Made by a program: the position numbers and the translations under genes. A DNA stretch of 64,000 nt from a phage. The stretch is from the sequence record PZ154895.1; one strand, written 5' to 3'. The notes under the pieces are model-generated. The model was not told the origin of the DNA. It was given only the letters and a program-made list of their open reading frames with translations, and did no database searches. Shown here in pieces: positions 207 through 29,497 of the stretch; the first letter of the stretch is position 1, and every line of letters begins with the position of its first letter.

Positions 207-2185
207 TGTGATATAGGCTCCAAATCGATAGTTAAGTATTGTGGACGTAAGTCATTTTCAAATACAATCAATGAACCATCGCGAGTAAAGATAACATCAT
301 CGGTTGGGTCAGAATATAATTCAATAGTCTGAACTTCAAATTTTTCAGATGTTAAATTAATTTTAGCGATATTCCAGTAAATCACATCAGCTGGATAATT
401 TATTTCACCGATAACATAGTATTTGTCGCGTCCATCAGAATTTGCTAATTTATTAAAATCGTTGCCTGTATATGGCTGAATGTTTTCATTTTCTGTAACA
501 TCGCCAGAAGCAAATGGACCAATAATAACTTTACCAATTCCTTTAGAATCTCGGTCTGTTGATACTATACGAACGTCATATAATACATCTTCTTCTAAAC
601 CAGTATCAGGATTTACAACCTTTCGTCCGGAATTAAATGAAAACGTATTAGATTCCATAGAACGATCTTTTATTTGATTATTGTATTTAATACCCGCTTC
701 AGGCGTTTTATAGAAGTTTTGTACTTCACGTACTATTTGAATTGTCGCCGATGAGCCAATGATAGAATGATCTGCATCATCTACATATGTCAACATCTTA
801 GATTTAGCGAAAGATGAGTTAAAAATTTCTACATCTTCGGTATAATAACGATCAATTTTATCAATTATTTGACCTTCGAGCCACTGCTCAGATTCTTGCA
901 GCTTATTTAAAGCATATGTGACTTTTAAATTAGTCTTAATAAAAAGATAATTAGGAGAAATAATTGATGGCGTAATAGGAGCTAAATTATAGTCTTTGAG
1001 ATAATTTTTAATATCTTCGCGTTGTACAGTAGTTAAATACAGCCCTGATTTAGGTTTAGCAGCAATAAATGCATAACCAGGTTTAGTAGAATCAGTAAAA
1101 GTCTGAACTGCCTGAATAATAGAACCAAATCTCTCTGAAACGAATGTATCATAGTCAGTCGCAGTTACGCATCGTTGCTGGGTTTCACGTTTAATAGTAC
1201 CCAATTCGCGAATACGCTCAATATCTTCTGGATCACCGCCGCCATCTGCCCCAACAAAATCTGGGTCATCGTTTGGATTTTCATTAATATTGATGACAGT
1301 TATATTTGTTAATGTATCTGCGTATGAAAATCCGACTGCGCCATTCGCATCCGCGCCGTTAGTACTGATGTACTCAATAACAATCGTAGAGTTTTGGGTA
1401 GGCTTAAGACCTCCAATATAATTAGCAGTCAATGCTCCTTCTGCCGCGTTAACAGAAATCTCACCTTCACCAAAATAAAATTCAGTATTTCCATCAATAG
1501 TTTCACGCATGTAGTAAATTGTTGATGTAGAACCAGCATGAACCATTGACTTTCTTGTCCAGTTAATCCATTCTGCTCCATCAACATACAGCTTAACTTG
1601 GTTTCTATCTATATTTTTGTCATAAATGATAATAGGTGTTAATTTATCATAAACGATTTCAGTTCTTACTATACGTCCCTGGGCCAATTTTAAACGTGGA
1701 AAATATTGGTTATTTTTATCACGAATAGCAATAACATCTTCGGTAGAGACAAAGTTATAAGGATTAACAGAAGTATCCTTTGCATATGCTAAAAAGCGAG
1801 TACCACGAGGAATAGTAATGTAATTTCTATTCAATGCGTCTGTACAAGTTAGCATAATTTCAGTTTGAGCAGCTGATTTTGAAGTAGGTAAATATCCATT
1901 ATCTTGTGCAGCTTGAACTACTGAACTACGTAAGTTAGCAGTACGCATAAAGCTTTCATACACGGCAGCATTACCAAACTGCTGAATGTATAATGTGTTA
2001 TAAGCCAAAAGGTCGCACAGAACGTTTAATCTTGAGCCTTCAAAATCATAATCCAAAAATTCGTTTTGACCATTAAGCCATTCAATGAGGTTTTGTTTTA
2101 TTTCAGCAAATGTACCCCCGACGAATATCTCGGGAATAGCATTTGCTGTTCTTGTTAATTGATAATTTACAGGGGTATTTGCCAT
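203..2185 (-). CDS. 6: baseplate wedge protein gp6
   Basis: 660 aa ORF, same length as T4 gp6, position between 5.4 and 7. Confidence 0.9.
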   Translation of the reverse strand: MANTPVNYQLTRTANAIPEIFVGGTFAEIKQNLIEWLNGQNEFLDYDFEGSRLNVLCDLLAYNTLYIQQFGNAAVYESFMRTANLRSSVVQAAQDNGYLPTSKSAAQTEIMLTCTDALNRNYITIPRGTRFLAYAKDTSVNPYNFVSTEDVIAIRDKNNQYFPRLKLAQGRIVRTEIVYDKLTPIIIYDKNIDRNQVKLYVDGAEWINWTRKSMVHAGSTSTIYYMRETIDGNTEFYFGEGEISVNAAEGALTANYIGGLKPTQNSTIVIEYISTNGADANGAVGFSYADTLTNITVININENPNDDPDFVGADGGGDPEDIERIRELGTIKRETQQRCVTATDYDTFVSERFGSIIQAVQTFTDSTKPGYAFIAAKPKSGLYLTTVQREDIKNYLKDYNLAPITPSIISPNYLFIKTNLKVTYALNKLQESEQWLEGQIIDKIDRYYTEDVEIFNSSFAKSKMLTYVDDADHSIIGSSATIQIVREVQNFYKTPEAGIKYNNQIKDRSMESNTFSFNSGRKVVNPDTGLEEDVLYDVRIVSTDRDSKGIGKVIIGPFASGDVTENENIQPYTGNDFNKLANSDGRDKYYVIGEINYPADVIYWNIAKINLTSEKFEVQTIELYSDPTDDVIFTRDGSLIVFENDLRPQYLTIDLEPISQ

Positions 2186-2193
2186 TTTAAATC

Positions 2194-2487
2194 CTATTTA
2201 ATGAATACTTTAGATGATGCCTGAGCCACAGTATCACCGCATGATATTGGATCAGCCATTTGAACAGCTTTCTTTCCAGTGACATATACCTTAGAAGTTC
2301 TAGGTTGTGTCACTCCGCCATGTGTTTCATATGGCTTTTTAATTTCTGTATGTTCTGTAATTGGATCACCTGCTACGAGAACAGCAATTCCTCCGGTGAA
2401 TACTTTACTTTGTGTGGCATTCACAACTGTTGGAGGCCACGCTTCATGGCCAGCAGTAACACACTTATCATAACTTAATCCTGACAT
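2194..2487 (-). CDS. 5.4: baseplate spike tip protein gp5.4 (PAAR-like)
   Basis: 97 aa ORF immediately downstream of gene 5 cluster, same length and position as T4 gp5.4. Confidence 0.8.
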
Positions 2488-3045
2488 TTATGGCCTCTCA
2501 TACACATAGCTTCTCAATTTATTAGCCCAACGACTCCAATTTCCAACTATAGTTTTTGTATAATTTTTAACAAGAGTTTTTCTTATTGGAGCAGGAGGAT
2601 CAGTTGGTTCAGTAGTATCAGAAGATGACCTAGAATTACTGCCAGAACCTCCAGATTCACTTTGTTCTTGGTAGTCATATATTAATGTTACTTCGTAAGT
2701 GAATGTCTTCTGGAGGTTTTGAGGAGCTTTCCATAGATATAACTGAGTATTAGAATCAGTTGGAAGGTCTTCCCATGAAGCAGCAGTTTTAAATTCATTA
2801 TCTAAACGATATTTCAATGCGTCATTTCCAAATCCAAACACAGATTCATACGTTCCATATAAACGATTTTTTTCTACTAAAACCCCAGGAGTTTCTTCGT
2901 AACTAGTTATATTTATAGATACTAACGTTTCACCCGTTTCTAATTGAGCGGTAAAGGTGACGTCGATAGAAGAACCTTCCATGGATTCTCCTAAATCAGC
3001 GCTCATTGGAAGTATATTAGCCAATGTCAATCCTCGATCCATCAA
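2488..3045 (-). CDS. 5.1: gp5.1-like protein; start uncertain (internal ATG at 3006 would avoid overlap with gene 5)
   Basis: 185 aa ORF between gene 5 and 5.4; acidic Ser/Gly-rich C-terminal region. Confidence 0.55.
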
Positions 3046-4744
3046 TTGTGTATTGACCAGATGAAATAGAACTCATAGATGCCATTTTTTCTGTCCAATC
3101 ACCACCAACGTCCCAATCAACTGTCCCAGCAACTTTCCAAGAAAGATTTCCATTTACTGTATTAGTTTGATTTCCTTCAACTAAAGTGGTAGCATCCCCT
3201 TTAACTGTAATGTCAGCATTACCTTCAACTACAATAGTAACATTACCTTTGACTAGGATAGTTCCATTACCTTCAACTGTCTTAGTTTCATCGCCACGCA
3301 CAAATATTGTATTGCTTCCATCTATTTGGTGAAGACGATTATCCATGTTGTAATAAATTTCTGATCCACCGACGTTAGTCTTTTTATCGCCGGCTACTAA
3401 AAAATTACCGTCAGCATTTGTTATATCATACAAATTATCAACAGTTTTTCTTGTTCTTCTTCCTGATGGTGATACTTCCTCATACGTTCCAGTCGGATGA
3501 ACTAATCTGTATCGTTCTTGCCCAGGGGTATCATCAAATTCCTGAATATGACCGCTTTCAGTTTCCATTGTGTGAACATACGGATATTCACCTTTATATG
3601 AAGAAACAGGTTCTTTGAATAAAATTCTCGAATCATTCGGAATAGGAGGGTCAGCCGGGTCAGAAGACTTTGCTACAGTAGCAGCCATTGCTGACAAAGA
3701 CCTAGCTGGCGTTTTCACTTCAATACCGTATGATTCCAAATTCCCTGTAAGAATAATCATGGTAACACGGGATGCACGGCCTTTTGTTTGTTGATACCAC
3801 AATGAATCGCGTCCGGCTTTATATGCTTTTTCCCAATCTCCGGCTAACATAGCAGTTAACATTGTGTTAAATTTAGCTACACCGCCAACGCCCATTTGAA
3901 ATGCCATATTTTCTAACGCCATTTGACGAGAACGATTAACTGCCTGCCAAACTGGGCCAACTTTAGAATGTGATTTAATGTCACGTTGCATATCAGCCAA
4001 ATCACGTTCAAATAAAGCTACCGCTTCTTCCATTGTAATGGAACCTGGATTTCCGGTAATTTCACGACCAACTTGTTTTGATAAAACTTTATTAATTTGG
4101 GCCATATCACGAACTGGCTGCTTCATGATAAGATGACCAATACCAATTGTCGGATATCCTTCGGTATCCCAATAAACTTTTAGTCTTAATCCTTCATCAC
4201 GGCGAAGCATTTCAGCCATTGACATATTTGGATTATCATCAGTTGGAATCTCTGATAGTGGTCTATCATCGGGATTTATCGCAGTATCTAAATTGCTATC
4301 TTGGATAATATTAGAAGACGAATCATATCCTACTTCTCCGCCTTGGTTTAATACGTTAGTATCATTTCCTAGACGTCTAGGATACTGACCAGTTGGGTCA
4401 GAAAATCCTTCAAGTCTATTAGGTTTTTCGCGAACTATTCCGCCATACGTGCCAAGGACAATTCCGTTAGTTTTCCATTTGTCTAAAAAATGACCATAAA
4501 CTCTAGTTCCTTCTACCGGACCAGTAACGGAGCCTCCAATTCCAGACATTGCTGCAGAAGTTATAGGTTGAATAACTGACATCCATGGTAATTTATCAGT
4601 TGGAATACCCATTACGTCGCCTTGCGCTCTTTGAGGTGGATGCAGACCAACTACACGAACACGAACACGACCTAATTTTAATGGGTCCATTCTATCTTCA
4701 ACAACACCAACAAACCAATTAAGGTTATTACTTATCATTTCCAT
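3017..4744 (-). CDS. 5: baseplate hub/cell-puncturing protein gp5 with lysozyme domain
   Basis: 575 aa, same length as T4 gp5; internal T4-lysozyme-like motif GYPTIGIGHL; C-terminal VxGxxxxx beta-helix repeats. Confidence 0.95.
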   Translation of the reverse strand: MEMISNNLNWFVGVVEDRMDPLKLGRVRVRVVGLHPPQRAQGDVMGIPTDKLPWMSVIQPITSAAMSGIGGSVTGPVEGTRVYGHFLDKWKTNGIVLGTYGGIVREKPNRLEGFSDPTGQYPRRLGNDTNVLNQGGEVGYDSSSNIIQDSNLDTAINPDDRPLSEIPTDDNPNMSMAEMLRRDEGLRLKVYWDTEGYPTIGIGHLIMKQPVRDMAQINKVLSKQVGREITGNPGSITMEEAVALFERDLADMQRDIKSHSKVGPVWQAVNRSRQMALENMAFQMGVGGVAKFNTMLTAMLAGDWEKAYKAGRDSLWYQQTKGRASRVTMIILTGNLESYGIEVKTPARSLSAMAATVAKSSDPADPPIPNDSRILFKEPVSSYKGEYPYVHTMETESGHIQEFDDTPGQERYRLVHPTGTYEEVSPSGRRTRKTVDNLYDITNADGNFLVAGDKKTNVGGSEIYYNMDNRLHQIDGSNTIFVRGDETKTVEGNGTILVKGNVTIVVEGNADITVKGDATTLVEGNQTNTVNGNLSWKVAGTVDWDVGGDWTEKMASMSSISSGQYTIDGSRIDIG

Positions 4745-5318
4745 AAGATTTCTCCATTATACGTATAAGGTCGTTCATAAATGAATTGATGTCTGATTTT
4801 GCTATTATTTTTATTTGACGAAGTTTTTCATTTTCAAGAACAGCAGCTTCATACGTATCGACCGCGGCAAGTGCTCCTTCATATTGAGGATATTTTCTAG
4901 CTTTATCGCCTTTGTCATACCAAACATATGGATTATCATCGTATGATATTAAATTATAAAATTTTTCACCGTTTTCATTCACATGATATACTATTTGGTC
5001 TCCACCTACGTTTTTGTATTTTTGTATAGATGCTTGATAAGCAGCTTCCTGCGAAGTAATCCATCCATAATACGGATCATAATTATCATTACACATCAAT
5101 AAAACCCAATACAACTGCGGATTTCCATATATAGTATTTGCTAATTCTTCCGGGCGTGGTGAACCTTTAATATAATAAGTGCGTAAGCGGTATCCCGCAA
5201 GAGCACGTTTGAAATAGTCTTTATAGTTTCTAAAAATATCTGTCATAGGAATAGTCGGCGCGTTTTTATTCACCGTTTTGGCCGCATATTCAATCGGATC
5301 AAAAAATGTAAAGAGCAT
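4728..5318 (-). CDS. 53: baseplate wedge protein gp53
   Basis: 196 aa ORF upstream of gene 5, same length as T4 gp53; TATAAATA late promoter on minus strand upstream. Confidence 0.85.
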   Translation of the reverse strand: MLFTFFDPIEYAAKTVNKNAPTIPMTDIFRNYKDYFKRALAGYRLRTYYIKGSPRPEELANTIYGNPQLYWVLLMCNDNYDPYYGWITSQEAAYQASIQKYKNVGGDQIVYHVNENGEKFYNLISYDDNPYVWYDKGDKARKYPQYEGALAAVDTYEAAVLENEKLRQIKIIAKSDINSFMNDLIRIMEKSYGNDK

Positions 5319-5331
5319 GGGCCCTCCTGTT

Positions 5332-5339
5332 TATAAATA
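5332..5339 (+). promoter_or_regulatory. T4-type late promoter TATAAATA for gene 4
   Basis: exact TATAAATA 27 nt upstream of gene 4 ATG. Confidence 0.6.
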
Positions 5340-5346
5340 TATTATC

Positions 5347-5354
5347 TATTTATA
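5347..5354 (-). promoter_or_regulatory. T4-type late promoter TATAAATA (minus strand) for gene 53
   Basis: reverse complement reads TATAAATA about 30 nt upstream of gene 53 start. Confidence 0.55.
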
Positions 5355-5365
5355 AGGAGAATCCA

Positions 5366-5818
5366 ATGGCATATTCTGGAAAATGGGTTCCTAAAAATAT
5401 ATCAAAATATAGAGGTGACCCTAAAAAAATTACGTATAGATCAAATTGGGAAAAATTCTTTTTTGAATGGTTAGATAAAAATCCAGAAATTATTGCATGG
5501 GGTAGTGAAACAGCAGTAATTCCTTATTTTTGTAATGCAGAAGGGAAAAAACGTAGATACTTCATGGATATTTGGATGAAAGATTCTTCTGGACAAGAAT
5601 TTTTTATTGAAATAAAACCTAAAAAAGAAACACAACCACCAGTTAAACCAGCACATCTAACAACTGCAGCGAAGAAAAGATTTATGAATGAAATTTATAC
5701 ATATTCCGTTAATACTGACAAATGGAAAGCAGCACAAGCTTTAGCTGAAAAGCGTGGAATAAAATTTAGAATTCTAACAGAAGATGGATTACGAGCTCTT
5801 GGCTTTAAGGGGGCATAA
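5366..5818 (+). CDS. 4: head completion protein gp4
   Basis: 150 aa, synteny 53/4/2/3/1; late promoter TATAAATA upstream. Confidence 0.85.
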
Positions 5819-6642
5819 TGGCTATTTTTCAAATAATTAATGAAAGCACTCCCCAAGTTCCAAAGGTTAAGCAATCATTAAACGAAAAGAAATGGATTCA
5901 GATAGGTCTTGAATACAAAAAGGCCAAAGCAAAAGGAATGACAGGAAAGCAATTTGCTGAAGAAAGAGGAATCAAATACTCTACGTTTACTTCAGCAATG
6001 TCAAAATATGCTTCAGGAATTAAAACAGCTGAAAAGATTCAAAAGCTTGAATCAAAACCAATGAATAAACTCAATAAGCAAGAAAGACAACTGCTTATGA
6101 TAAATTCATTCAGGCAAACATTGCGTGATAAAATTCGTAATGAAGGTGCAGCAATTAATAATAAAACTAGAAAGTGGTTTGCTGAAACTATTAAGCAAGT
6201 AAAAGGACATAAAGTTGTTCGCCCGCAGCCGGGACGAATATATGCTTTTGCTTATGATGCTAAACACAAAGAAACTCTTCCTTACTGGGATAAATTTCCT
6301 TTGATAATTTATCTTGGTTTAGGTAAACATAATTTAATGTACGGATTGAACTTGCACTATATTCCACCTAAAGCTCGTCAGCAATTTCTAGAAGAGCTTT
6401 TAAAGCAATATTCAAATACACCTACTATTACTAATAAAACGAAATTAAAAATTGATTGGAGTCAAGTGAAAGGATTTAGGGGTGCAGACCAAATGATTAA
6501 GGCATATATACCCGGTAATATTATGGGTAGCCTTGTTGAAATCGCCCCGAAAGACTGGGCGAACGTTGTGTTAATGCCACTTCAGCAGTTCGTTTCAAAA
6601 GGAAAACGTTTCTCTGCAAACAAAGTCTGGTCAAATATCTAA
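5818..6642 (+). CDS. 2: DNA end protector protein gp2
   Basis: 274 aa, start overlaps gp4 stop, synteny with T4. Confidence 0.85.
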
Positions 6643-6748: not shown

Positions 6749-7279
6749 ATGTCGCAAGCACTGCAACAAATTTTTAACCAAGCAAATACAACTAACTTTG
6801 TAGTATCAATACCACATAGTAATACTACATCTGCTTTTACTTTAAATGCTCAGTCAGTTCCTATTCCGGGAATTAGAATACCTGTTACTGATACCGTGAC
6901 TGGGCCGTTTGGACTAGGCCGAGCACAACGTCCAGGAGTTACATTTGAATACGATCCACTCATCGTGAGATTTATAGTTGATGAAGAGCTTAAGTCGTGG
7001 ATAGGAATGTATGAATGGATGCTAGGAACTAGTAACTATCTTACAGGTGAAAATACTGCCCAAAAAACAGGTCCTGAATACATTACGCTTTACATTTTAG
7101 ATAACAGTAAAACTGAAATCGTGATGTCAATAAATTTTTATAAGCCTTGGGTTTCTGACCTGTCTGAAGTAGAATTTAGCTACACGGAAGATTCAGACCC
7201 AGCTTTAGTATGTACAGCAACGATTCCTTATACGTATTTTCAAGTAGAAAAAGATGGTAAAATTATAGCAGAAGTTTAA
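6749..7279 (+). CDS. 3: tail completion/sheath stabiliser gp3
   Basis: 176 aa from ATG 6749 with SD GAGGA; ORF-track start 6668 is an upstream extension. Confidence 0.8.
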   Translation: MSQALQQIFNQANTTNFVVSIPHSNTTSAFTLNAQSVPIPGIRIPVTDTVTGPFGLGRAQRPGVTFEYDPLIVRFIVDEELKSWIGMYEWMLGTSNYLTGENTAQKTGPEYITLYILDNSKTEIVMSINFYKPWVSDLSEVEFSYTEDSDPALVCTATIPYTYFQVEKDGKIIAEV

Positions 7280-7328
7280 TGCTTCAGTTTCATGTGTTAT
7301 AATCTTAACTAAATTTGAGGAGAAACAT

Positions 7329-8053
7329 ATGAAACTAATCTTTTTAAGTGGTGTAAAGCGTAGTGGAAAAGATACTACTGCAGATTTTATCATGAATAAT
7401 TATTCTGCAGTTAAATATCAACTTGCTGGTCCTATTAAAGATGCATTGGCTTATGCATGGGCTGTATTTGCAGCAAACACTGACTATCCTTGCTTAACTC
7501 GTAAAGAGTTTGAAGGAATTGACTATGATCGTGAGACTAATTTGAATTTGACTAAATTAGAAGTAATTACGATTATGGAACAAGCATTTTGCTATCTTAA
7601 TAGTAAAAGCCCAATTAAAGGCGTGTTTGTTTTTGATGACGAAGGAAAAGAATCAGTTACTTTCGTAGCATTTAACAAGATTGCTGACGTTATAAATAAT
7701 ATTGAAGATCAATGGTCAATCCGTCGTCTGATGCAAGCCCTAGGTACGGATTTGATTGTTAATAACTTCGACCGCATGTATTGGGTAAAATTATTTGCTT
7801 TAGATTATCTTGATAAATTTAACTCAGGTTATGATTATTATATCGTTCCTGATACTCGTCAAGATCATGAAATGGATGCGGCTAGGGCGATGGGTGCTAC
7901 AGTAATTCATGTAGTTCGTCCTGGTCAAAAATCCAATGATACTCATATTACAGAAGCTGGATTGCCAATTCATGATGGCGATTTAGTAATTACAAACGAC
8001 GGTTCTCTTGAAGAACTTTTTTCTAAAATTAAAAATACACTAAAGGTACTATA

Positions 8054-8054
<1 letters not shown>
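7329..8054 (+). CDS. 1: deoxynucleoside monophosphate kinase gp1
   Basis: 241 aa, P-loop-like GVKRSGKDT near N-terminus, synteny. Confidence 0.9.
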
Positions 8055-8751
<697 letters not shown>

Positions 8752-8763
8752 TTTCACAAAGTT

Positions 8764-8803
8764 GTTTACATGCTGATGAGGTAGTGATACTATTACCTCA
8801 TCA
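8764..8803 (+). promoter_or_regulatory. early promoter with stem-loop (PeSL-like): GTTTACA-N17-TACTAT inside 10-bp inverted repeat
   Basis: -35 8764-8770, -10 8788-8793; inverted repeat tgatgaggta (8774-8783) / tacctcatca (8794-8803). Confidence 0.6.
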
Positions 8804-8823
8804 AAATTAATTAGGAAAATAAA

Positions 8824-9081
8824 ATGAAAACTTTCAAAGAGTTTGCTACAAAAACTACTATCACTGAATCTTCACACGGTATGGAAGTAAAGCTTGGAAT
8901 GGCTTTAGCTGAAGCTGAGCGTCTTTTATCTCGTATTAAAGAACTTGCTGCTGCAGTCGATCCTTCATCTTTTAAAGGAGACCAAACTAAAGTTAAAGCA
9001 CTTTTAGCATTATGCTCCGATGCAGGAGAAATTGCTAAAAATGGTTCTAAGATGAAGAAACGATTAGAAGATTTAAAATAA
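8824..9081 (+). CDS. internal protein-like (N-terminal capsid targeting sequence MKTFKEF..ITE)
   Basis: 85 aa; CTS-like N-terminus; paralogous to ORF 17106-17387; early promoter upstream. Confidence 0.55.
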   Translation: MKTFKEFATKTTITESSHGMEVKLGMALAEAERLLSRIKELAAAVDPSSFKGDQTKVKALLALCSDAGEIAKNGSKMKKRLEDLK

Positions 9082-9093
9082 TTTCACAAAGTT

Positions 9094-9129
9094 GTTTACA
9101 GAAGGGTAGTAGTGTGATACTATTACCCT
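9094..9129 (+). promoter_or_regulatory. early promoter (PeSL-like), second copy of the same cassette
   Basis: identical 31 nt to 8740-8770 including -35; -10 gatactat; inverted repeat agggta/taccct. Confidence 0.6.
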
Positions 9130-9151
9130 ATCAACTACCGAGGAGAATAAA

Positions 9152-9337
9152 ATGAAACGTTGTGAATTAATTCGAAATGTTGCTATTGCAATTTCTGCTT
9201 CTGCATTTAGCTTTTCAATGTTTGTTGGATTTATATGTGGATTATTAACTACAGCAGAAAATGTGTTTTCACTTGTAGTAGCATTTTTAATTGGTTTAAT
9301 TGCTATCGTTATGGATAAAATTTCTAAAGGTGAATAA
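9152..9337 (+). CDS. small membrane protein
   Basis: 61 aa, two hydrophobic segments, SD GAGGAG upstream. Confidence 0.45.
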   Translation: MKRCELIRNVAIAISASAFSFSMFVGFICGLLTTAENVFSLVVAFLIGLIAIVMDKISKGE

Positions 9338-9738
9338 TGAACGTTGAATACTATGTATATGCGGATTACGAAAATAATCCATCTAAAGATGAAGATAATC
9401 GTTTAGGTGTAGATGCTTTCGATTCCCCTGCAGCGGCATGGCAATGGGTTGAAAGAACCGATATTCCTTACCGTTATATTGAAGTGGTTGACCACGCAGG
9501 AAACAAGTATCCTAAGGAAGCATATGTTCCTTCCGGGAAGGTAAATTTCCTTTTGTTTGCAGGTGATAATTATTATCCACGTGGTGGGTATACTGATTTA
9601 ATTGCGAAAGCCTCCACTGAAGATGAACTTCGTGACATTATCAAAGAAAATGAAAACAAACCGATGTGTGGTTCTAATCGCTTTGATTGGTGGCAAATTG
9701 TAAATGCCAATACGCACACTATTGTTGATGAAGGTTGA
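9337..9738 (+). CDS. hypothetical protein
   Basis: 133 aa ORF, start overlaps upstream stop. Confidence 0.5.
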   Translation: MNVEYYVYADYENNPSKDEDNRLGVDAFDSPAAAWQWVERTDIPYRYIEVVDHAGNKYPKEAYVPSGKVNFLLFAGDNYYPRGGYTDLIAKASTEDELRDIIKENENKPMCGSNRFDWWQIVNANTHTIVDEG

Positions 9739-10028
9739 TAATGATTCTTTATGCGAAAGTATCATCCATTGAAAATGGATATAAATATGATCAAGAAGCA
9801 GCTAAAGCCTTGATTGATGATTATGGCATTTTAACATATTTTGAAGTTGAAAAGGTTTACATTGACCGTTCATCTTCTCAAGTTAAATTAGTGAAGGAAG
9901 ATCGTAAATTTAATACAGTAAATTTTGATTTCTTTATTGAAACAGAAAAAGGTCCTCTTGAATATGATATTTTCAAGAATCCTTTGGGTCTTGAATGCAT
10001 CGTAAATATGTATTATCATAAATGGTAA
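9735..10028 (+). CDS. hypothetical protein
   Basis: 97 aa ORF, ATGA overlap with upstream gene. Confidence 0.5.
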   Translation: MIMILYAKVSSIENGYKYDQEAAKALIDDYGILTYFEVEKVYIDRSSSQVKLVKEDRKFNTVNFDFFIETEKGPLEYDIFKNPLGLECIVNMYYHKW

Positions 10029-10125: not shown

Positions 10126-10198
10126 TGGGAATTAGCCAAGTTGGTAAGGCACTGGATTTTGATTCCAGGATGCAAAGGTTCGAGTCCTTTATTCCCAG
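10126..10198 (+). tRNA. tRNA-Gln (anticodon UUG)
   Basis: 7 bp acceptor tgggaat/attccca, anticodon stem ctgga/tccag, loop ttTTGat, T-arm GGTTCGAGTCC. Confidence 0.85.
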
Positions 10199-10199
10199 C

Positions 10200-10286
10200 G
10201 CGAGAATGGTCAAATTGGTAAAGGCACAGCACTTAAAATGCTGCGGAATGATTTCCTTGTGGGTTCGAGTCCCACTTCTCGCACCA
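10200..10286 (+). tRNA. tRNA-Leu (anticodon UAA), long variable arm, encoded CCA
   Basis: acceptor gcgagaa/ttctcgc, anticodon stem cagca/tgctg, loop ctTAAaa, T-arm GGTTCGAGTCC. Confidence 0.85.
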
Positions 10287-10291
10287 AATTT

Positions 10292-10365
<74 letters not shown>

Positions 10366-10369
10366 ATTT

Positions 10370-11020
10370 ATGACTCGTCGTGAGACGCTCAGTTCTTTAT
10401 TAGGGACTGATATGCATTTTTATCTTTATAAAATAACAAATAAAATTAATAATAAAATTTATATTGGTGTGCATTCTACCGAAAATTTAGATGATGGATA
10501 TATGGGTTCTGGTAAATTATTAAAAAGAGCCCAAGACAAGTATGGTATAGAAAATTTTTCTAAAGAAATATTAGAGTATTTTGATGATAAAGAATCTATG
10601 CTTGAAGCCGAGAAAAATATTGTTACAGAAGAGTTTTTAAATAGACCAGATGTGTATAATTTAAAACTTGGCGGTGAAGGTGGATGGGACCACATAAATA
10701 ATTATCCTATGACAGATCAGCAACGCGAATTAATTTCATTGGGTGTTAAAAAGGCACATTCTAACGGAAAATTAAAAGGATGGTCTTCAAATGGATTAAT
10801 GAAGAATGGCTTTGCTGGTAAAACTCATTCTCAAGAAGCTAAACGTAAAATAGCAAAAGCAAACGAAGCAAAAGTTTCTGCGGATGAAAGAAAAAGAAGA
10901 ATAGAAATTTCTAAATTATATGATTTTTCTAAGCGTGGTGAATTATCTAAATATGCTAAGCATATTGGCGTAAGTCATACTCAAGCAAAAAGAATTCTAA
11001 ATCAAATTAACAATATATAA
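10370..11020 (+). CDS. segB: GIY-YIG homing endonuclease (SegB-like) inside the tRNA cluster
   Basis: 216 aa; GIY-YIG motif (FYLYKITN...KIYIGV); embedded between tRNA subclusters as T4 segB is. Confidence 0.8.
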   Translation: MTRRETLSSLLGTDMHFYLYKITNKINNKIYIGVHSTENLDDGYMGSGKLLKRAQDKYGIENFSKEILEYFDDKESMLEAEKNIVTEEFLNRPDVYNLKLGGEGGWDHINNYPMTDQQRELISLGVKKAHSNGKLKGWSSNGLMKNGFAGKTHSQEAKRKIAKANEAKVSADERKRRIEISKLYDFSKRGELSKYAKHIGVSHTQAKRILNQINNI

Positions 11021-11026
11021 ATATTT

Positions 11027-11116
11027 GGAGGCGTGGCAGAGTGGTTTAATGCACCGGTCTTGAAAACCGGCAGTCGCTCCGGCGACTCATAGGTTCAAAT
11101 CCTATCGCCTCCGCCA
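11027..11116 (+). tRNA. tRNA-Ser (anticodon UGA), long variable arm
   Basis: acceptor ggaggcg/cgcctcc, anticodon stem ccggt/accgg, loop ctTGAaa, T-arm GGTTCAAATCC, CCA encoded. Confidence 0.85.
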
Positions 11117-11121
11117 GTTTT

Positions 11122-11197
11122 GCTGATTTAGCTCAGTAGGTAGAGCAACTCACTTGTAATGAGAAGGTCGGCGGTTCGATCCCGTCAATCAGCACCA
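11122..11197 (+). tRNA. tRNA-Thr (anticodon UGU)
   Basis: acceptor gctgatt/aatcagc, D-arm AGCTCAGTAGGTAGAGC, loop ctTGTaa, T-arm GGTTCGATCC. Confidence 0.85.
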
Positions 11198-11198
11198 A

Positions 11199-11273
11199 GG
11201 CCCTGTAGCTGGAAGGTTCAAGCAAGCGACTCATAATCGCCAGATGGTGGTTCAATTCCACCCAGGGCCACCA
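11199..11273 (+). tRNA. tRNA with CAU anticodon (Ile-lysidine type or Met)
   Basis: acceptor ggccctg/cagggcc, loop ctCATaa, T-arm ggtgg-ttcaatt-ccacc. Confidence 0.75.
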
Positions 11274-11282
11274 AATTAATTT

Positions 11283-11369
11283 GGGGAGTTATCCCGTAGA
11301 GGTAGCGGTGTGGACTGTAAATTCATTGTCATTGCGACTCGGGTGGTTCGACTCCATCACTCCCCACCA
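11283..11369 (+). tRNA. tRNA with long variable arm, probable Tyr (anticodon GUA); D-arm non-canonical
   Basis: acceptor ggggagt/actcccc, loop CTGTAAA as in bacterial tRNA-Tyr, T-arm ggtgg-ttcgact-ccatc, CCA encoded. Confidence 0.55.
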
Positions 11370-11373
11370 ATTT

Positions 11374-11448
11374 GGATGTGTAGCTCAATGGCAGAGCGAT
11401 CGCCTGTTAAGCGATTGGTTATAGGTTCGAATCCTATCACGTCCGCCA
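11374..11448 (+). tRNA. tRNA-Asn (anticodon GUU)
   Basis: acceptor ggatgtg/cacgtcc, anticodon stem atcgc/gcgat, loop ctGTTaa, T-arm GGTTCGAATCC. Confidence 0.75.
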
Positions 11449-11452
11449 AATC

Positions 11453-11528
11453 CGAGGCATAGCTCAGAAGGAAGAGCAAGGACCTTCTAAGTCCTAGGTC
11501 GTAGGTTCGATCCCTACTGCCTCGACCA
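11453..11528 (+). tRNA. tRNA-Arg (anticodon UCU)
   Basis: acceptor cgaggca/tgcctcg, D-arm AGCTCAGAAGGAAGAGC, anticodon stem aggac/gtcct, loop ctTCTaa. Confidence 0.85.
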
Positions 11529-25123: not shown

Positions 25124-25290
25124 TGGTTTACAAGTTGGCAAGGTTATGGTATAGTAATCTTGTCAACTGCCAAGGAGAAGAGAATGAAAGTTTTGTTTGT
25201 TGTGTATGTGATGATTCAATATAATTACCCGATGTTTACTTATAATCTGGTGAACAACATTATTGATATTATTCAAAGGAGTATGTAATT

Positions 25291-25848
25291 GTGGGTGAGT
25301 CGAAGAGAATCAATATGAAACGATTAGTATTAGAAGTTAGTCCGCTTTTTGGTGAATTGGCTATAGAAAAAGTAAATAACATGTATCGTTTGACACAAGA
25401 AGACGATATGCTGTATTTTACGCCTAGTGAAATCATTCATTTAACCCAAATTGAATATCCTTATACTGATAAAATAGTAAGCATCAATGATGAGCACAAA
25501 ATTCATTTTTATTCTTCATGCCCAGGATTTAATATTAACAGTGAGTCAATGTGTTTATCAGTTATCCATTGGGATAGTTTTATAGCTAAGATTAAATATT
25601 TTTATTATTCTAATGAAAGAAAACATAGTTTAAAATGGCTTAAAAATTGCAATGCTATTATTACTAACGCTTGCAATCAGAATGATGAAACTCTTTTAAA
25701 TGTATCAAAATGTTATGAAGAGGGAGATGTCTTAACTATTCGTCAAATTGACGATTTTCGATCACATATTGTTACATTTACCAAAGACGAAGCTATTGCG
25801 CTAAAGACTTATCTTGATTCTGTCATTCCAACTATGATTTCAAAGTGA
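25291..25848 (+). CDS. hypothetical protein, paralog A (shared C-terminal motif)
   Basis: 185 aa; C-terminus DEAIALKTYLDSVIPTM similar to next ORF; GTG start with SD AAGGAG. Confidence 0.5.
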   Translation: MGESKRINMKRLVLEVSPLFGELAIEKVNNMYRLTQEDDMLYFTPSEIIHLTQIEYPYTDKIVSINDEHKIHFYSSCPGFNINSESMCLSVIHWDSFIAKIKYFYYSNERKHSLKWLKNCNAIITNACNQNDETLLNVSKCYEEGDVLTIRQIDDFRSHIVTFTKDEAIALKTYLDSVIPTMISK

Positions 25849-25854
25849 GGAAAT

Positions 25855-26376
25855 ATGTTTATTTCAAGTGAAAGCGGTTTAATTCGTGTTGAATTTAAAA
25901 ATGACATCTTCCTTATTCAAGGAGATGATATTATTAAAATGAGTTATGACGAAATCAAGAAAATTTGTCATGCTCTTGAAAGCCATGGAAAAGTAAATGC
26001 TACTATCGATATAGGTGATTTATGGGTGACACTTTATGAAGTATCCGAAGGATTTAACATTGAAGATGAAAATAACATCTTAGCTATTGATAAAAGAAGT
26101 GATTTGTTTGATGTGTTAAAAGTTTATGAACAGTCAAACGGTGGAAGAAAAGCTGCATTGATTTATCAAAAACCACATTCATGTGGAACTGCTTCAATCA
26201 TTTCAAATATTGAAGATGAAACTGATACTTATATGTGTGTTTTAAAGGCTGGTGGTGACCGTCATCCGGATTTTATTTCTATTCGTCAAAACAATGGAGA
26301 AATTTCATTATCAAAATCAGAAGCTGAAGCTATGATTAAGTATTTAACAACTGTTACACCTTCAATGAAAGGATAA
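25855..26376 (+). CDS. hypothetical protein, paralog B (shared C-terminal motif)
   Basis: 173 aa; C-terminus SEAEAMIKYLTTVTPSM. Confidence 0.5.
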   Translation: MFISSESGLIRVEFKNDIFLIQGDDIIKMSYDEIKKICHALESHGKVNATIDIGDLWVTLYEVSEGFNIEDENNILAIDKRSDLFDVLKVYEQSNGGRKAALIYQKPHSCGTASIISNIEDETDTYMCVLKAGGDRHPDFISIRQNNGEISLSKSEAEAMIKYLTTVTPSMKG

Positions 26377-26378
26377 TT

Positions 26379-26840
26379 ATGATTATTAATGAAAGCTCTT
26401 GGCACTATAAATTATTCAAAATGTTTAATGATGAATGGAAACGACCTAAGACACTGTGCGCGTATTTTTGGTCTATTGTTATTCCTACATTTTTCGTTTC
26501 TTTTTTCGGATGTACTATACTCGCAGGTCTAACTATCATCTGTGCAGAAATCATACAGAAATGGCTTATTTTTGGTAGTTTATGGACTCTTATTCCATCA
26601 GCATTTATACTTGCCATTTTGCTTGTTTTACTTATTATTGGTTCATTTGTTATTCCTGCACAACTGCGTGAAAAATATAAAGATTATAAATGGAAAAAGG
26701 ATTATGCTTTACATGTAGAAAATATTGATAGGGCGTATAAAGGTTTACCTCCTATTCAACCTAAGAAATCTATTATCGTCGAATTTTTAAAAGCGCGTAA
26801 AGCTAAAGTATGTCCTGTTATTGAATATAAGGCTGAATGA
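26379..26840 (+). CDS. membrane protein
   Basis: 153 aa with three hydrophobic helices, basic C-terminal tail. Confidence 0.5.
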   Translation: MIINESSWHYKLFKMFNDEWKRPKTLCAYFWSIVIPTFFVSFFGCTILAGLTIICAEIIQKWLIFGSLWTLIPSAFILAILLVLLIIGSFVIPAQLREKYKDYKWKKDYALHVENIDRAYKGLPPIQPKKSIIVEFLKARKAKVCPVIEYKAE

Positions 26841-27850
26841 TGAAAACAGTAATGAAAAGCTATTTTGGTAGTCATCTTTATGGAACTTCTACTCCAGAAT
26901 CTGATGTAGATTTTAAAGAAATCTTTGTTCCTCCTGCTCGCGATATTCTTATCGGAAATGTTAAAGAGCATATGAGTAAAAACACTAACAACACATCATC
27001 TAAAAACACTAAAGATGATATTGACCATGAACTATACAGTCTTAAGTATTTCTTTAAATTAGCAGCAGATGGTGAAACTGTAGCATTGGATATGCTCCAC
27101 ACTCCACCTGAGTTAGTGGTTAAATCTGATTTGCCTGATGTATGGAAGTTTATTCAAGACAATCGTTCTCGTTTTTATACGACTAACATGAAATCCTATT
27201 TAGGATATGTTCGCAAGCAAGCTTCTAAATATGGTGTTAAGGGTTCTCGTTTGGCCGCATTGCGTGATGTATTGAAAGTAGTTAATCAAATCCCTGATCA
27301 GTGGGTTGATTACCAAGAAGACGGTTCCATTAAGCAGCGTCGCACTAAAGTTGAAGATATTAAGCATCGTCTTCCAGAAAACGAGTTCTGTGAATGGGTG
27401 TTCCACAATCATGAGAAAACAGGCCCACAAACGTTCTATACTGTGTTGGGTCGTAAATATCAGACAACTCTTTCTCTTATTGAGCTTAAGCAGTCTTTGA
27501 ATAAACTTGATGCCGAATACGGTGAACGCGCTCGTAAGGCTGAAGCTAATGAGGGCATTGACTGGAAAGCTTTGAGTCATGCTTGTCGTGGTGGACTCCA
27601 ACTATTGGAAATTTACAAAACTGGTGACTTGGTTTATCCACTTAAAGATGCTCCATTTATTCTCGACGTGAAGTTGGGTAAACATCCATTTAAAACTGTT
27701 CAAGAGTTTTTGGAAGATGTGGTCGATCAAGTAGAAGCAGCATCCATTGAAGCTTCTAAGAACGGTATGCAGCAAAAAGTAGACATGGGTTTCTGGGATG
27801 ACTTCCTTGAGAGGGTTTATCTTGAAAACCACCGAAGTTATTATAAATGA
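26837..27850 (+). CDS. Pol-beta superfamily nucleotidyltransferase-like protein
   Basis: 337 aa; N-terminal hGS..G(x5)SDxDh motif (FGSHLYGTSTPESDVDF); strong terminator downstream. Confidence 0.6.
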   Translation: MMKTVMKSYFGSHLYGTSTPESDVDFKEIFVPPARDILIGNVKEHMSKNTNNTSSKNTKDDIDHELYSLKYFFKLAADGETVALDMLHTPPELVVKSDLPDVWKFIQDNRSRFYTTNMKSYLGYVRKQASKYGVKGSRLAALRDVLKVVNQIPDQWVDYQEDGSIKQRRTKVEDIKHRLPENEFCEWVFHNHEKTGPQTFYTVLGRKYQTTLSLIELKQSLNKLDAEYGERARKAEANEGIDWKALSHACRGGLQLLEIYKTGDLVYPLKDAPFILDVKLGKHPFKTVQEFLEDVVDQVEAASIEASKNGMQQKVDMGFWDDFLERVYLENHRSYYK

Positions 27851-27852
27851 TA

Positions 27853-27879
27853 GGGAGCCTTCGGGCTCCCTTTTTTTTT
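27853..27879 (+). terminator. rho-independent terminator
   Basis: gggagcc-TTCG-ggctccc followed by nine T. Confidence 0.8.
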
Positions 27880-27902
27880 GTTTAAAATGACGTCACAAAG
27901 TT

Positions 27903-27932
27903 GTTTACTTCTATCGCAAAGCATATTATAAT
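27903..27932 (+). promoter_or_regulatory. early promoter GTTTACT-N17-TATAAT
   Basis: -35 at 27903-27909, -10 at 27927-27932, preceded by tcacaaagtt UP-like element. Confidence 0.55.
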
Positions 27933-27978: not shown

Positions 27979-28269
27979 ATGCATATTTTAATGCAATGCC
28001 TTGGCAACAAAATTAATGATTTTAATCATAAGCGTGTTAATGATTACATTAAAGACAAACTTGAGATTAAAGACATACTTTTTAGAGGACTTACAATAGA
28101 GGAAGTGCTATCTTATAAGTTTGAAGTTAATAGGAGAATCAAATTTAAAAGAATAACTTCCTTTAGCAGTGAGTCTCATATAGCTGAAACGTTTGCAGCA
28201 GAACGCTATATGACTAATGCTTTAGTAGTGTTAAAAATGCAAACGTTTTCGACTATTCGACTGCTATGA
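27979..28269 (+). CDS. hypothetical protein
   Basis: 96 aa, early promoter upstream. Confidence 0.45.
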   Translation: MHILMQCLGNKINDFNHKRVNDYIKDKLEIKDILFRGLTIEEVLSYKFEVNRRIKFKRITSFSSESHIAETFAAERYMTNALVVLKMQTFSTIRLL

Positions 28270-28463
28270 TTGACATTTTAGAAAATTTAATCGCAATTGA
28301 AGAATCTGGCCAAACTGACGATGATAAGCTTAACAAGCTTTATGATAATCTTTGTATGGTAGATTATGAAAGAGAGTTTTTACTGCCAACTAATTCTGAG
28401 TTAATAGTTAAAAACATATATTTTGATAGCAAAAAGAACATGCATATAGTAGAAATGGAATAA
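28266..28463 (+). CDS. hypothetical acidic protein
   Basis: 65 aa. Confidence 0.45.
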   Translation: MIDILENLIAIEESGQTDDDKLNKLYDNLCMVDYEREFLLPTNSELIVKNIYFDSKKNMHIVEME

Positions 28464-28483
28464 ATCGACACAAAGGGGGCTAT

Positions 28484-28506
28484 GGTACTATACAACTATC
28501 AACTAC
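28484..28506 (+). repeat. 23-nt core GGTACTATACAACTATCAACTAC (partial cassette copy)
   Basis: exact match to cores at 12951-12973 and 29926-29948. Confidence 0.7.
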
Positions 28507-28528
28507 TGATACAGATTTGGAGAATAAA

Positions 28529-29497
28529 ATGAAAACTGTAACTATCAATAAGGGTATCTACTTTGGTAAAGAAATCTCTGGAACTTTTGAGCTCTTAGGC
28601 GAATGGTTCCCAGATAATGCTCCGGTAGATGCACAAGGAGATGGTAAAGTTTTTGTTGAAATTGACGGTAAACGTCGCGGTGTTTGGGTTTACAAATCAG
28701 ATATTTCATATGATGGTGTAAAAGTTGAAGAAGTTAAAGAATCGTATGAAGATATGAAAACCCGCATTAATAAAAGATTTAATGTTATGGGAATGATGAC
28801 GAACGGTATTATTAATGGAAATATTCGTTCATTAATTATCTCTGGCGCAGCAGGTATTGGTAAAACGTATTCTTTAGATAAAGCTTTAAATAAAGCAAAT
28901 GATATTGGATACATTGAATATAAAAGCATTAATGGTAAAATCTCTGGTATTGGTCTTTATGAGCAGCTTTGGAATAATCGTGAAGAGAATTCTGTCCTTT
29001 TGATTGATGATGTGGATGTTTTCTCTGATATGGACATTCTTAATCTTCTAAAAGCTGCTCTGGACACTGGAGAGACCCGTAAAGTCTGCTGGAGCACTGC
29101 GTCTTCTTACTTAGAAGAAAAAGGCATTGACCGTGAGTTTGAATTTAAAGGAACGATTGTTTTTATCACAAACGTTGACATTGACCGCGAATTAGACCGT
29201 GGTACTAAACTTGCTCCACATTTACAAGCATTAGTGTCCCGCTCAGTTTATTTGGATTTGGGTGTTCACACTAATGAAGAAATTATGGTCAGGGTTGAAG
29301 ATGTTATTCTTTCAACTGACATGATGCAAAAGCGTGGTCTTTCTGATGAAGAAACTTATAAAGCATTATCATGGATGAAAGTTAATGTTAATCGTTTACG
29401 CAATGTTTCACTGCGTACTGCTCTTTATCTTGCTGACTTTATTATGACCGACAAAAACGGTTGGGAAGAAATTGCTGAGGTTACTCTTCTGAAATAA
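28529..29497 (+). CDS. AAA+ family ATPase with N-terminal extra domain
   Basis: 322 aa from ATG 28529; Walker A GAAGIGKT, Walker B LLIDDVD. Confidence 0.65.
   Translation: MKTVTINKGIYFGKEISGTFELLGEWFPDNAPVDAQGDGKVFVEIDGKRRGVWVYKSDISYDGVKVEEVKESYEDMKTRINKRFNVMGMMTNGIINGNIRSLIISGAAGIGKTYSLDKALNKANDIGYIEYKSINGKISGIGLYEQLWNNREENSVLLIDDVDVFSDMDILNLLKAALDTGETRKVCWSTASSYLEEKGIDREFEFKGTIVFITNVDIDRELDRGTKLAPHLQALVSRSVYLDLGVHTNEEIMVRVEDVILSTDMMQKRGLSDEETYKALSWMKVNVNRLRNVSLRTALYLADFIMTDKNGWEEIAEVTLLK

Follow-up and report, generated by a model that had tools for sequence, protein, structure and literature searches.

T4 NrdC.11 and its orthologs as a predicted long-form RlaP subfamily of nucleotidyltransferases with a probable role in RNA 3'-end repair

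RNA repair as a means of phage counter-defence was first exemplified by the Pnkp/Rnl1 pathway of phage T4. In 2008, the lesion left by RloC-type enzymes, anticodon nucleases that excise a nucleotide, was proposed to be irreparable by phage (PMC2610378). Iyer et al. 2021 (PMC7824862), citing the paper that first described the RlaP family, predicted that phage RlaPs restore the nucleotides cut by RloC-type nucleases before ligation. Here we describe a member of this family, the ortholog of T4 nrdC.11, encoded by an open reading frame (ORF) at positions 26837-27850 of a 64,000-nucleotide stretch of phage DNA (sequence record PZ154895.1), which we call the window. The gene and its motifs, the membrane-protein ORF preceding it, and the terminator and promoter-like sites given below lie on the + strand.

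The closest enzymes for which biochemistry is available are the RlaPs of Pseudomonas fluorescens (PfRlaP) and P. aeruginosa (PaRlaP), characterised by Carruthers, Fatma and Huang in December 2025 (bioRxiv 10.64898/2025.12.29.696909). Among Escherichia coli macromolecules these enzymes label RNA alone, adding one or two nucleoside monophosphates (NMPs, or dNMPs) to RNA 3'-hydroxyl (3'-OH) ends with a preference for Mn2+, and DNA, protein and 3'-phosphate ends are not substrates. On a mimic of cleaved tRNA they prefer the end at the broken anticodon loop; they also extend the 3' ends of full-length tRNA and rRNA, show little specificity for the nucleoside triphosphate (NTP), and raise the aminoacylation of a tRNA that was short of one nucleotide before ligation. 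In the crystal structure of PfRlaP, a nucleotidyltransferase (NTase) domain and a helical domain enclose a basic cleft, and the last helix packs back on the NTase domain (same preprint).

The window comes from a Tequatrovirus, a T4-like phage. The ORF, whose product begins with MMKTVMKSYFGSHLYGTSTPESDVDF, was found exactly at the coordinates, on the strand and with the length of 337 amino acids (aa) given in the initial annotation, and it does lie between rI and nrdC as stated there. Its product is 98% identical at the amino-acid level to T4 NrdC.11 (NP_049709.1, labelled 'nucleotidyltransferase' in RefSeq), with which the gene also shares its length, its orientation and its place upstream of nrdC.10; in T4 the product has been listed as 'uncharacterized 38.9 kDa protein in nrdC-mobD intergenic region'. 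An alignment to T4 nrdC.10 and nrdC.11 had been proposed as a check, and it turned out that the ORF is nrdC.11 itself, which had not been recognised. The DNA of the ORF is 98.1% identical to that of phage W143 and has megablast matches in 672 phage records, and the protein matches PHROG 388 'nucleotidyltransferase' over its full length (E=7e-137). Both the identity of the gene as the T4 nrdC.11 ortholog and its enzymatic class are close to certain. With tblastn, homologs with identities as low as 30% were detected in 1,506 phage records, which cover T4-like phages infecting Escherichia, Klebsiella, Aeromonas, Acinetobacter, Vibrio and other hosts. The region had been called hypervariable, and this holds for the neighbouring genes, which vary, but not for the gene itself, which is broadly conserved. 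Public records of nrdC.11 orthologs in GenBank and UniRef are often mislabelled 'thioredoxin', a label derived from the gene name nrdC.x, and one is labelled 'HNH homing endonuclease'; these annotation errors are still propagating.

An exhaustive HMMER search at E<=1e-3 returned 3,418 representative clusters, of which 828 reached E<=1e-30; nearly all are 300-350 aa long and align end to end at ~34-59% identity. Conservation was scored over 146 sequences (145 relatives and the window protein; ~34-59% identity). The active-site motif F10-G11-S12...S22-D23-V-D25-F26 (26864-26914), which combines hG-S with a DxD that would supply two metal-binding carboxylates, aligns to SGS...DSDYD of canonical RlaP. 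G11 and S12 are conserved in 100% of the sequences, D23 and D25 in 99%, D63 in 97%, D85 in 96% and D61 in 95%. With this conservation and the Pfam match described below, the hG-S...SDxD motif picked out in the initial annotation is no chance match, and the GS and DxD residues are retained in orthologs. D63 (27023-27025), on the strand formed by residues 62-68 of the predicted model, is the predicted third catalytic carboxylate, and D85 (27089-27091) is an acidic residue of the helix that follows the NTase core. The remaining ~300 residues had been described as lacking obvious similarity; instead, the full length aligns with thousands of proteins, and motifs of the C-terminal part are as strongly conserved as the active site. 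These are Y124, Q128, Y132, G136, YGxR at 228-231, DWKAxSHAxR at 242-251, P268, K279 and G281. In the window protein the most prominent of them reads D242-W-K244-A-L-S-H248-A-C-R251 (27560-27589, in the helical domain), and its K244, H248 and R251 are invariant.

The protein scores 43.7 bits (E=3.6e-11) with PF10127 (RlaP, 'RNA repair pathway DNA polymerase beta family'), whose gathering cutoff is 23; 67/67 diverse relatives also match, and the match is precomputed on all 120 close homologs. When the NrdC.11-like profile was aligned with a canonical RlaP profile, built from 14 sequences drawn from the bacterial tandem loci described below, the NTase cores aligned with a probability of 94% (E=1.5e-7). 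This alignment pairs the GS and DxD residues, D63 with the invariant D72, the third catalytic Asp of canonical RlaP, and D85 with the invariant E94. PfRlaP and PaRlaP thus share with NrdC.11 the Pfam membership, the GS/DxD/third-Asp core and, for part of the subfamily, linkage to repair genes, and the predicted model suggests the same plan of an NTase domain followed by a helical domain. NrdC.11 is, however, ~80-90 aa longer, the extra length comprising a long helix and an inserted beta-rich module. The conserved Lys lies 159 aa beyond the acidic helix residue here (D85-K244) and 55 aa beyond it in canonical RlaP (E94-K149), which fits an insertion of ~100 aa made up of these two elements. Relative to the ~250-aa canonical RlaP, the putative subfamily-specific insertion spans approximately aa 119-225 (27191-27511), with low conservation at 140-225. 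We therefore group the NrdC.11-like proteins, which are ~320-340 aa in length, into a separate long subfamily of RlaP defined by a predicted insertion and a divergent C-terminal domain, consistent with the preprint, where T4 NrdC.11 falls in a separate network cluster (cluster 5 vs 1a).

An AlphaFold2 model built from a 67-sequence alignment reached a mean predicted local distance difference test score (pLDDT) of 94.2 and a predicted template modelling score (pTM) of 0.81. In it, an alpha/beta NTase domain (~aa 1-115) is followed by a long helix (residues 119-150), a beta-rich module of low sequence conservation (155-209) and a helical region (214-336) that ends in a terminal helix (317-336). 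A fold comparison had been suggested at the outset, and the nearest solved folds among the matches listed are indeed NTases, namely HalB, 3c18, LinB and KNTase. KNTase (1kny), LinB (3jyy) and the NTase-like 3c18 resemble the model in that their NTase domain precedes a helical domain for substrate binding, and in the BFVD fold search short phage NTases matched across both halves of the protein. Sequence searches of the PDB with the single sequence and with the 67-sequence profile gave nothing meaningful; the PDB set searched did not contain PfRlaP. Taken with the Pfam match, the residue conservation and the profile-profile alignment, the predicted fold agrees with the original proposal of a Pol-beta-superfamily NTase with an intact hG-S...DxD motif, and the protein is a predicted active enzyme of the long subfamily of RlaP.

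Gene neighbourhoods of some bacterial relatives connect the long subfamily to RNA repair. A survey of 100,044 species genomes yielded 78 bacterial and archaeal loci with homologs 24-43% identical to NrdC.11; partners were counted over the 68 loci with enough sequence for RlaP and, for Pnkp and Hen1, over the 43 loci flanked on each side by 4 kb or more. The dominant neighbour cluster is canonical RlaP at full length (E=1.3e-78 over PF10127 positions 1-248 of 249); in 18/68 loci its gene follows on the same strand after 15-110 bp. The G[SA]...DxD motif is present in both the long and the short gene of 15/18 of these tandems; the gene calls of the loci L104, L122 and L127 were unreliable, and the long gene of L126 was likewise not resolved in this check. 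Bacterial Pnkp (kinase-phosphatase-ligase, PF16542) and Hen1 (PF12623) are also present in 5/43 loci. In L106, L114, L122, L126 and L159 (each at ~8001-9800) a cassette of Hen1, Pnkp, the long NrdC.11-like NTase and the short canonical RlaP is seen. Among the ~50 bacterial loci with neither RlaP nor Pnkp, no recurrent partner was found, the top Pfam family accounting for 3/148 neighbours. Enzymes of 5'-phosphate/3'-OH RNA repair are the sole recurrent association of the subfamily, in a minority of loci. The partners of NrdC.11-type genes, Pnkp, Hen1 and Rnl1, belong with 5'-phosphate ligases, whereas those of PfRlaP and PaRlaP are RtcB and RtcA, and the tandem occurrence with canonical RlaP implies a distinct role.

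In viruses, one contig (IMGVR_UViG_3300022221_000194, our locus L072) carries at 991-6311 a compact cluster in one orientation, in which genes for an Rnl1-type ligase (PF09511), ThyX, a metallophosphatase and a P-loop (AAA_33) kinase lie, in this order, directly upstream of the NrdC.11 homolog; the cluster looks like a split-Pnkp repair cassette. No Pnkp was found near the NrdC.11 homolog in any of 78 viral loci. Neighbours there include the membrane-protein ORF upstream (38/78 loci) and an nrdC.10-like AAA ATPase downstream (37/78), the latter solely with relatives of at least 52% identity and with variable inserts in between. The nrdC.10 ATPase was considered as a functional partner and rejected, given its presence in 37/78 loci, the variable inserts, and a terminator and a promoter between the two genes in the window.

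What is already known about the gene, and what we rediscovered, is its identity as T4 nrdC.11, the NTase annotation, the Pfam RlaP assignment, the prediction of RNA repair and its naming in the 2025 family study. New from the present analysis are the conservation over the whole length with the predicted assignment of D63, the proposed long-form subfamily, and the long/short tandem in bacterial Pnkp/Hen1 cassettes. The evidence obtained here directly supports the gene identity, the family membership, the conservation of catalytic residues, the fold, and, for some bacteria and a single phage contig, the linkage of the subfamily to RNA repair genes. From these we infer the RNA substrate of NrdC.11, the number and identity of the nucleotides it adds and its target in vivo. 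Our favoured reading, which we consider probable, is that NrdC.11 is an RNA 3'-end NTase that refills lost nucleotides before ligation. Of the functions suggested in the initial annotation, which included making or modifying a nucleotide signal, to repair or modify RNA is the one favoured, because of the RlaP membership and the subfamily's linkage to Pnkp, Hen1 and Rnl1.

The predicted mechanism would run as follows. D23, D25 and D63 would hold two metal ions, Mn2+ being preferred in characterised family members, and the damaged RNA would sit in a cleft formed by the NTase domain on one side and the basic, helical C-terminal domain on the other. The 3'-OH of this RNA would receive one or a few NMPs from NTPs. 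During infection, nucleotides trimmed by host anticodon nucleases or ribotoxins, e.g., by RloC, which excises the wobble base, could be restored in this way. After end healing by T4 Pnkp, Rnl1/Rnl2, whose substrates are 3'-OH and 5'-phosphate ends, could reseal a functional tRNA. The 3'-OH product would chemically suit the T4 ligases, unlike the problem raised for RtcB in the preprint. The gene can be deleted from T4 on a laboratory host (PMC9825161), as would be expected of a counter-defence gene needed only under certain conditions.

Several observations weigh against this reading. The PF10127 match is limited to aa 7-135 (profile positions 23-142 of 249). With the insertion excised, the C-terminal 200 aa align to canonical RlaP in hhalign at E=0.08-0.17 with a probability below 1%, which is not significant, and because of this the substrate specificity may differ from that of the characterised RlaPs. 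This non-significant alignment is nevertheless collinear, placing K244/H248/R251 on the invariant K149/Y153/R156, with the spacing K-x3-[HY]-x2-R common to the NrdC.11 signature and canonical RlaP, and P268 on the PP motif; we put forward C-terminal homology to canonical RlaP as a hypothesis. The retention of catalytic motifs in both genes of 15/18 bacterial tandems suggests that the long and short forms are not redundant and that both fill in ends in the Pnkp/Hen1 RNA repair of bacteria, and ~70% of the bacterial loci have no repair genes within reach. In phages, the 64-kb window contains no RNA ligase, Pnkp or second RlaP, a ligase is nearby in just 1/78 viral loci, and in T4 nrdC.11 is unlinked to pseT, rnlA and rnlB, with pseT and rnlA ~80 kb away. 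Finally, the biochemistry of the family comes from an unreviewed preprint that itself notes open problems and explicitly lists T4 NrdC.11 as an RlaP member 'of unknown function' (bioRxiv 10.64898/2025.12.29.696909).

The alternative that survives best, which we consider unlikely, is that the enzyme acts on natural RNA 3' termini, in rebuilding or tailing tRNA 3' ends, be it by CCA-like repair of 3' ends that have been attacked or in the maturation of the phage's own tRNAs, or in tagging host or phage RNAs for decay. The activity of characterised RlaPs on full-length tRNA and rRNA ends, with little NTP specificity, would fit this, as would the phage's own nine-tRNA cluster 15 kb upstream, and the divergent C-terminal domain together with the non-redundancy of the bacterial tandems would permit an RNA end other than a break. 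The recurrent genomic partners, however, are solely the break-repair enzymes Pnkp, Hen1 and Rnl1. Models of CCA-adding enzymes and poly(A) polymerases gave no Pfam or NCBIfam match at E<=1, and no such enzyme is among the top fold matches listed, a single weak Cid1 fold match having a probability of 0.07. In addition, T4 tRNAs without an encoded CCA rely on the host CCA enzyme, which counts against such a role.

A still less probable alternative is the nucleotidylation of a protein or small molecule, i.e., AMPylation like that by the MntA antitoxin or modification like that by KNTase and LinB, by which, for example, a host HEPN-type toxin or a defence protein would be inactivated. KNTase and LinB are among the nearest solved folds. 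The MntA/MNT model of type VII toxin-antitoxin systems (NF047752) scored 13.2 bits against a cutoff of 60, on the GS...D motif, and MntA is small whereas this protein has 337 aa. A scan of neighbouring genes detected no HEPN gene, and a HEPN-type Rx4-6H RNase motif is absent from the C-terminal helical bundle, where H248-x2-R251 has the wrong order and spacing.

The synthesis of a nucleotide or oligonucleotide signal or decoy against host immunity, by a CD-NTase/OAS-like or a HalB-like oligodeoxyadenylate activity, is very improbable, its sole support being a generic fold similarity to Hailong HalB (9dbh/9dbj; 16% identity, at the level of the NTase core), since NCBIfam and PADLOC scans of the protein gave no usable match, no CD-NTase, OAS or CCA-enzyme Pfam match was obtained, no cGAS-like/CD-NTase structure is among the top 50-60 fold matches listed, enzymes of the family need an RNA 3'-OH primer and stop after one or two additions, and the genomic partners are repair enzymes with no effector- or sensor-like recurrent neighbour. 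HalB, which synthesises oligodeoxyadenylate, acts together with the HalA channel, whereas no HalA-like partner is present here; with CD-NTases, OAS, cGAS and CCA-adding enzymes the protein has only the generic Pol-beta core in common (hG-S, DxD, third carboxylate).

Turning to expression, the nrdC.11 ortholog had been placed in its own transcription unit, and this part of the initial annotation did not stand. The first ATG of the 337-aa ORF shares ATGATGA (26837-26843) with the stop codon of the preceding ORF, which encodes a 153-aa membrane protein (26379-26840; PHROG 944). The second ATG (26840) is used as the start by T4 (336 aa) and by most orthologs, and is probably the true start here. 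Intergenic gaps of 6, 2 and -4 nt link three upstream ORFs to nrdC.11 in a packed block (25291-27850). Because of the overlap of start and stop codons and the tight packing of the ORFs behind an early-type promoter-like site at 25127-25155 (TTTACA-17-TATAGT with TG), the probable start of the unit, nrdC.11 looks like the final gene of a four-gene unit, and it is predicted to be translationally coupled to the membrane-protein gene. An internal promoter just 5' of nrdC.11 was sought; sigma-70-like sites at 26583-26638 and a MotA-box-like TATGCTTTA at 26703-26711 (found by eye, with a poor -10) were judged too weak.

The strong terminator described downstream of the gene is confirmed. An intrinsic terminator at 27852-27880 closes the unit, with a hairpin (27852-27871) of an 8-bp G+C-rich stem, 6/8 pairs of which are G-C, and a UUCG loop, followed by nine T's; its folding energy is -16.2 kcal/mol (z=-4.05 vs shuffles). 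No other strong terminator-like site is present between 25 and 30 kb in the window, and phage W143 has the same terminator with a shorter T-run. A second early-type promoter-like site at 27904-27932 (GTTTACT-17-TATAAT) would open the next unit and marks the 3' boundary.

The surroundings of the gene differ from those in T4. There, the mobD homing endonuclease gene overlaps the start of nrdC.11, whereas in the window phage two tandem paralogous genes for y05I/MobD.1-like putative transcription factors (25291-25848 and 25855-26376, each with PF24449 and PF24448) and the 153-aa membrane-protein gene occupy the mobD site. Between nrdC.11 and nrdC.10 the window phage has an extra, frameshifted gene for a small ADP-ribosyltransferase-like protein that T4 does not have. 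The ORFs at 27979-28269 and 28266-28463 correspond to one 161-aa gene in W143 (7140-7625 of our locus L003), split in the window by a 1-nt deletion in an A-run near 28233 (A5 vs A6 in W143). The intact W143 protein matches PHROG 832 'RNA polymerase ADP-ribosylase' (E=7e-24), and the R (FRG) and STS-like (SFSS) motifs are found in the first piece and the ExE motif (YEREF) in the second. The segment 27979-28463 is thus a putative small, stand-alone Alt-like ADP-ribosyltransferase gene, frameshifted here or affected by a homopolymer sequencing error. Just past it, at ~28480-28490, 64 bp are absent relative to W143 (~7645-7710 of L003); in W143 this extra sequence comprises the second (3') half of a terminator hairpin together with the T-run, and also the -35 element (GTTTAC) of a promoter that lies upstream of nrdC.10. 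The nrdC.10 ortholog itself (28517-29497; PHROG 1250) encodes a 326-aa Walker-A AAA/STAND-like ATPase with weak AAA_14, nSTAND3 and clamp-loader-like matches. Farther upstream, nine tRNA genes (Gln, Leu, Gly, Ser, Thr, Met/CAU, Tyr, Asn and Arg) lie at 10126-11528, tRNA-Gly and tRNA-Ser being 660 bp apart.

A more specific proposal, which we offer tentatively, is that the long NrdC.11-type protein is a functionally distinct second RNA-end NTase, rather than a plain RlaP, whose different specificity for nucleotides or substrates would be set by the divergent C-terminal domain and the ~100-aa insertion. In T4-like phages it would supply the third component missing from Pnkp-Rnl1 tRNA repair, reversing the action of RloC-type nucleases. 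A distinct activity would account for its retention by bacteria next to canonical RlaP in Pnkp/Hen1 cassettes, and this long/short tandem merits the attention of workers on RNA repair. If NrdC.11 does restore trimmed nucleotides, T4-like phages would carry a three-enzyme repair system able to beat 'smart' ribotoxins of the RloC type, a question dating from 2008 (PMC2610378) would be answered, and the 2025 biochemistry of RlaP would be extended to phages.

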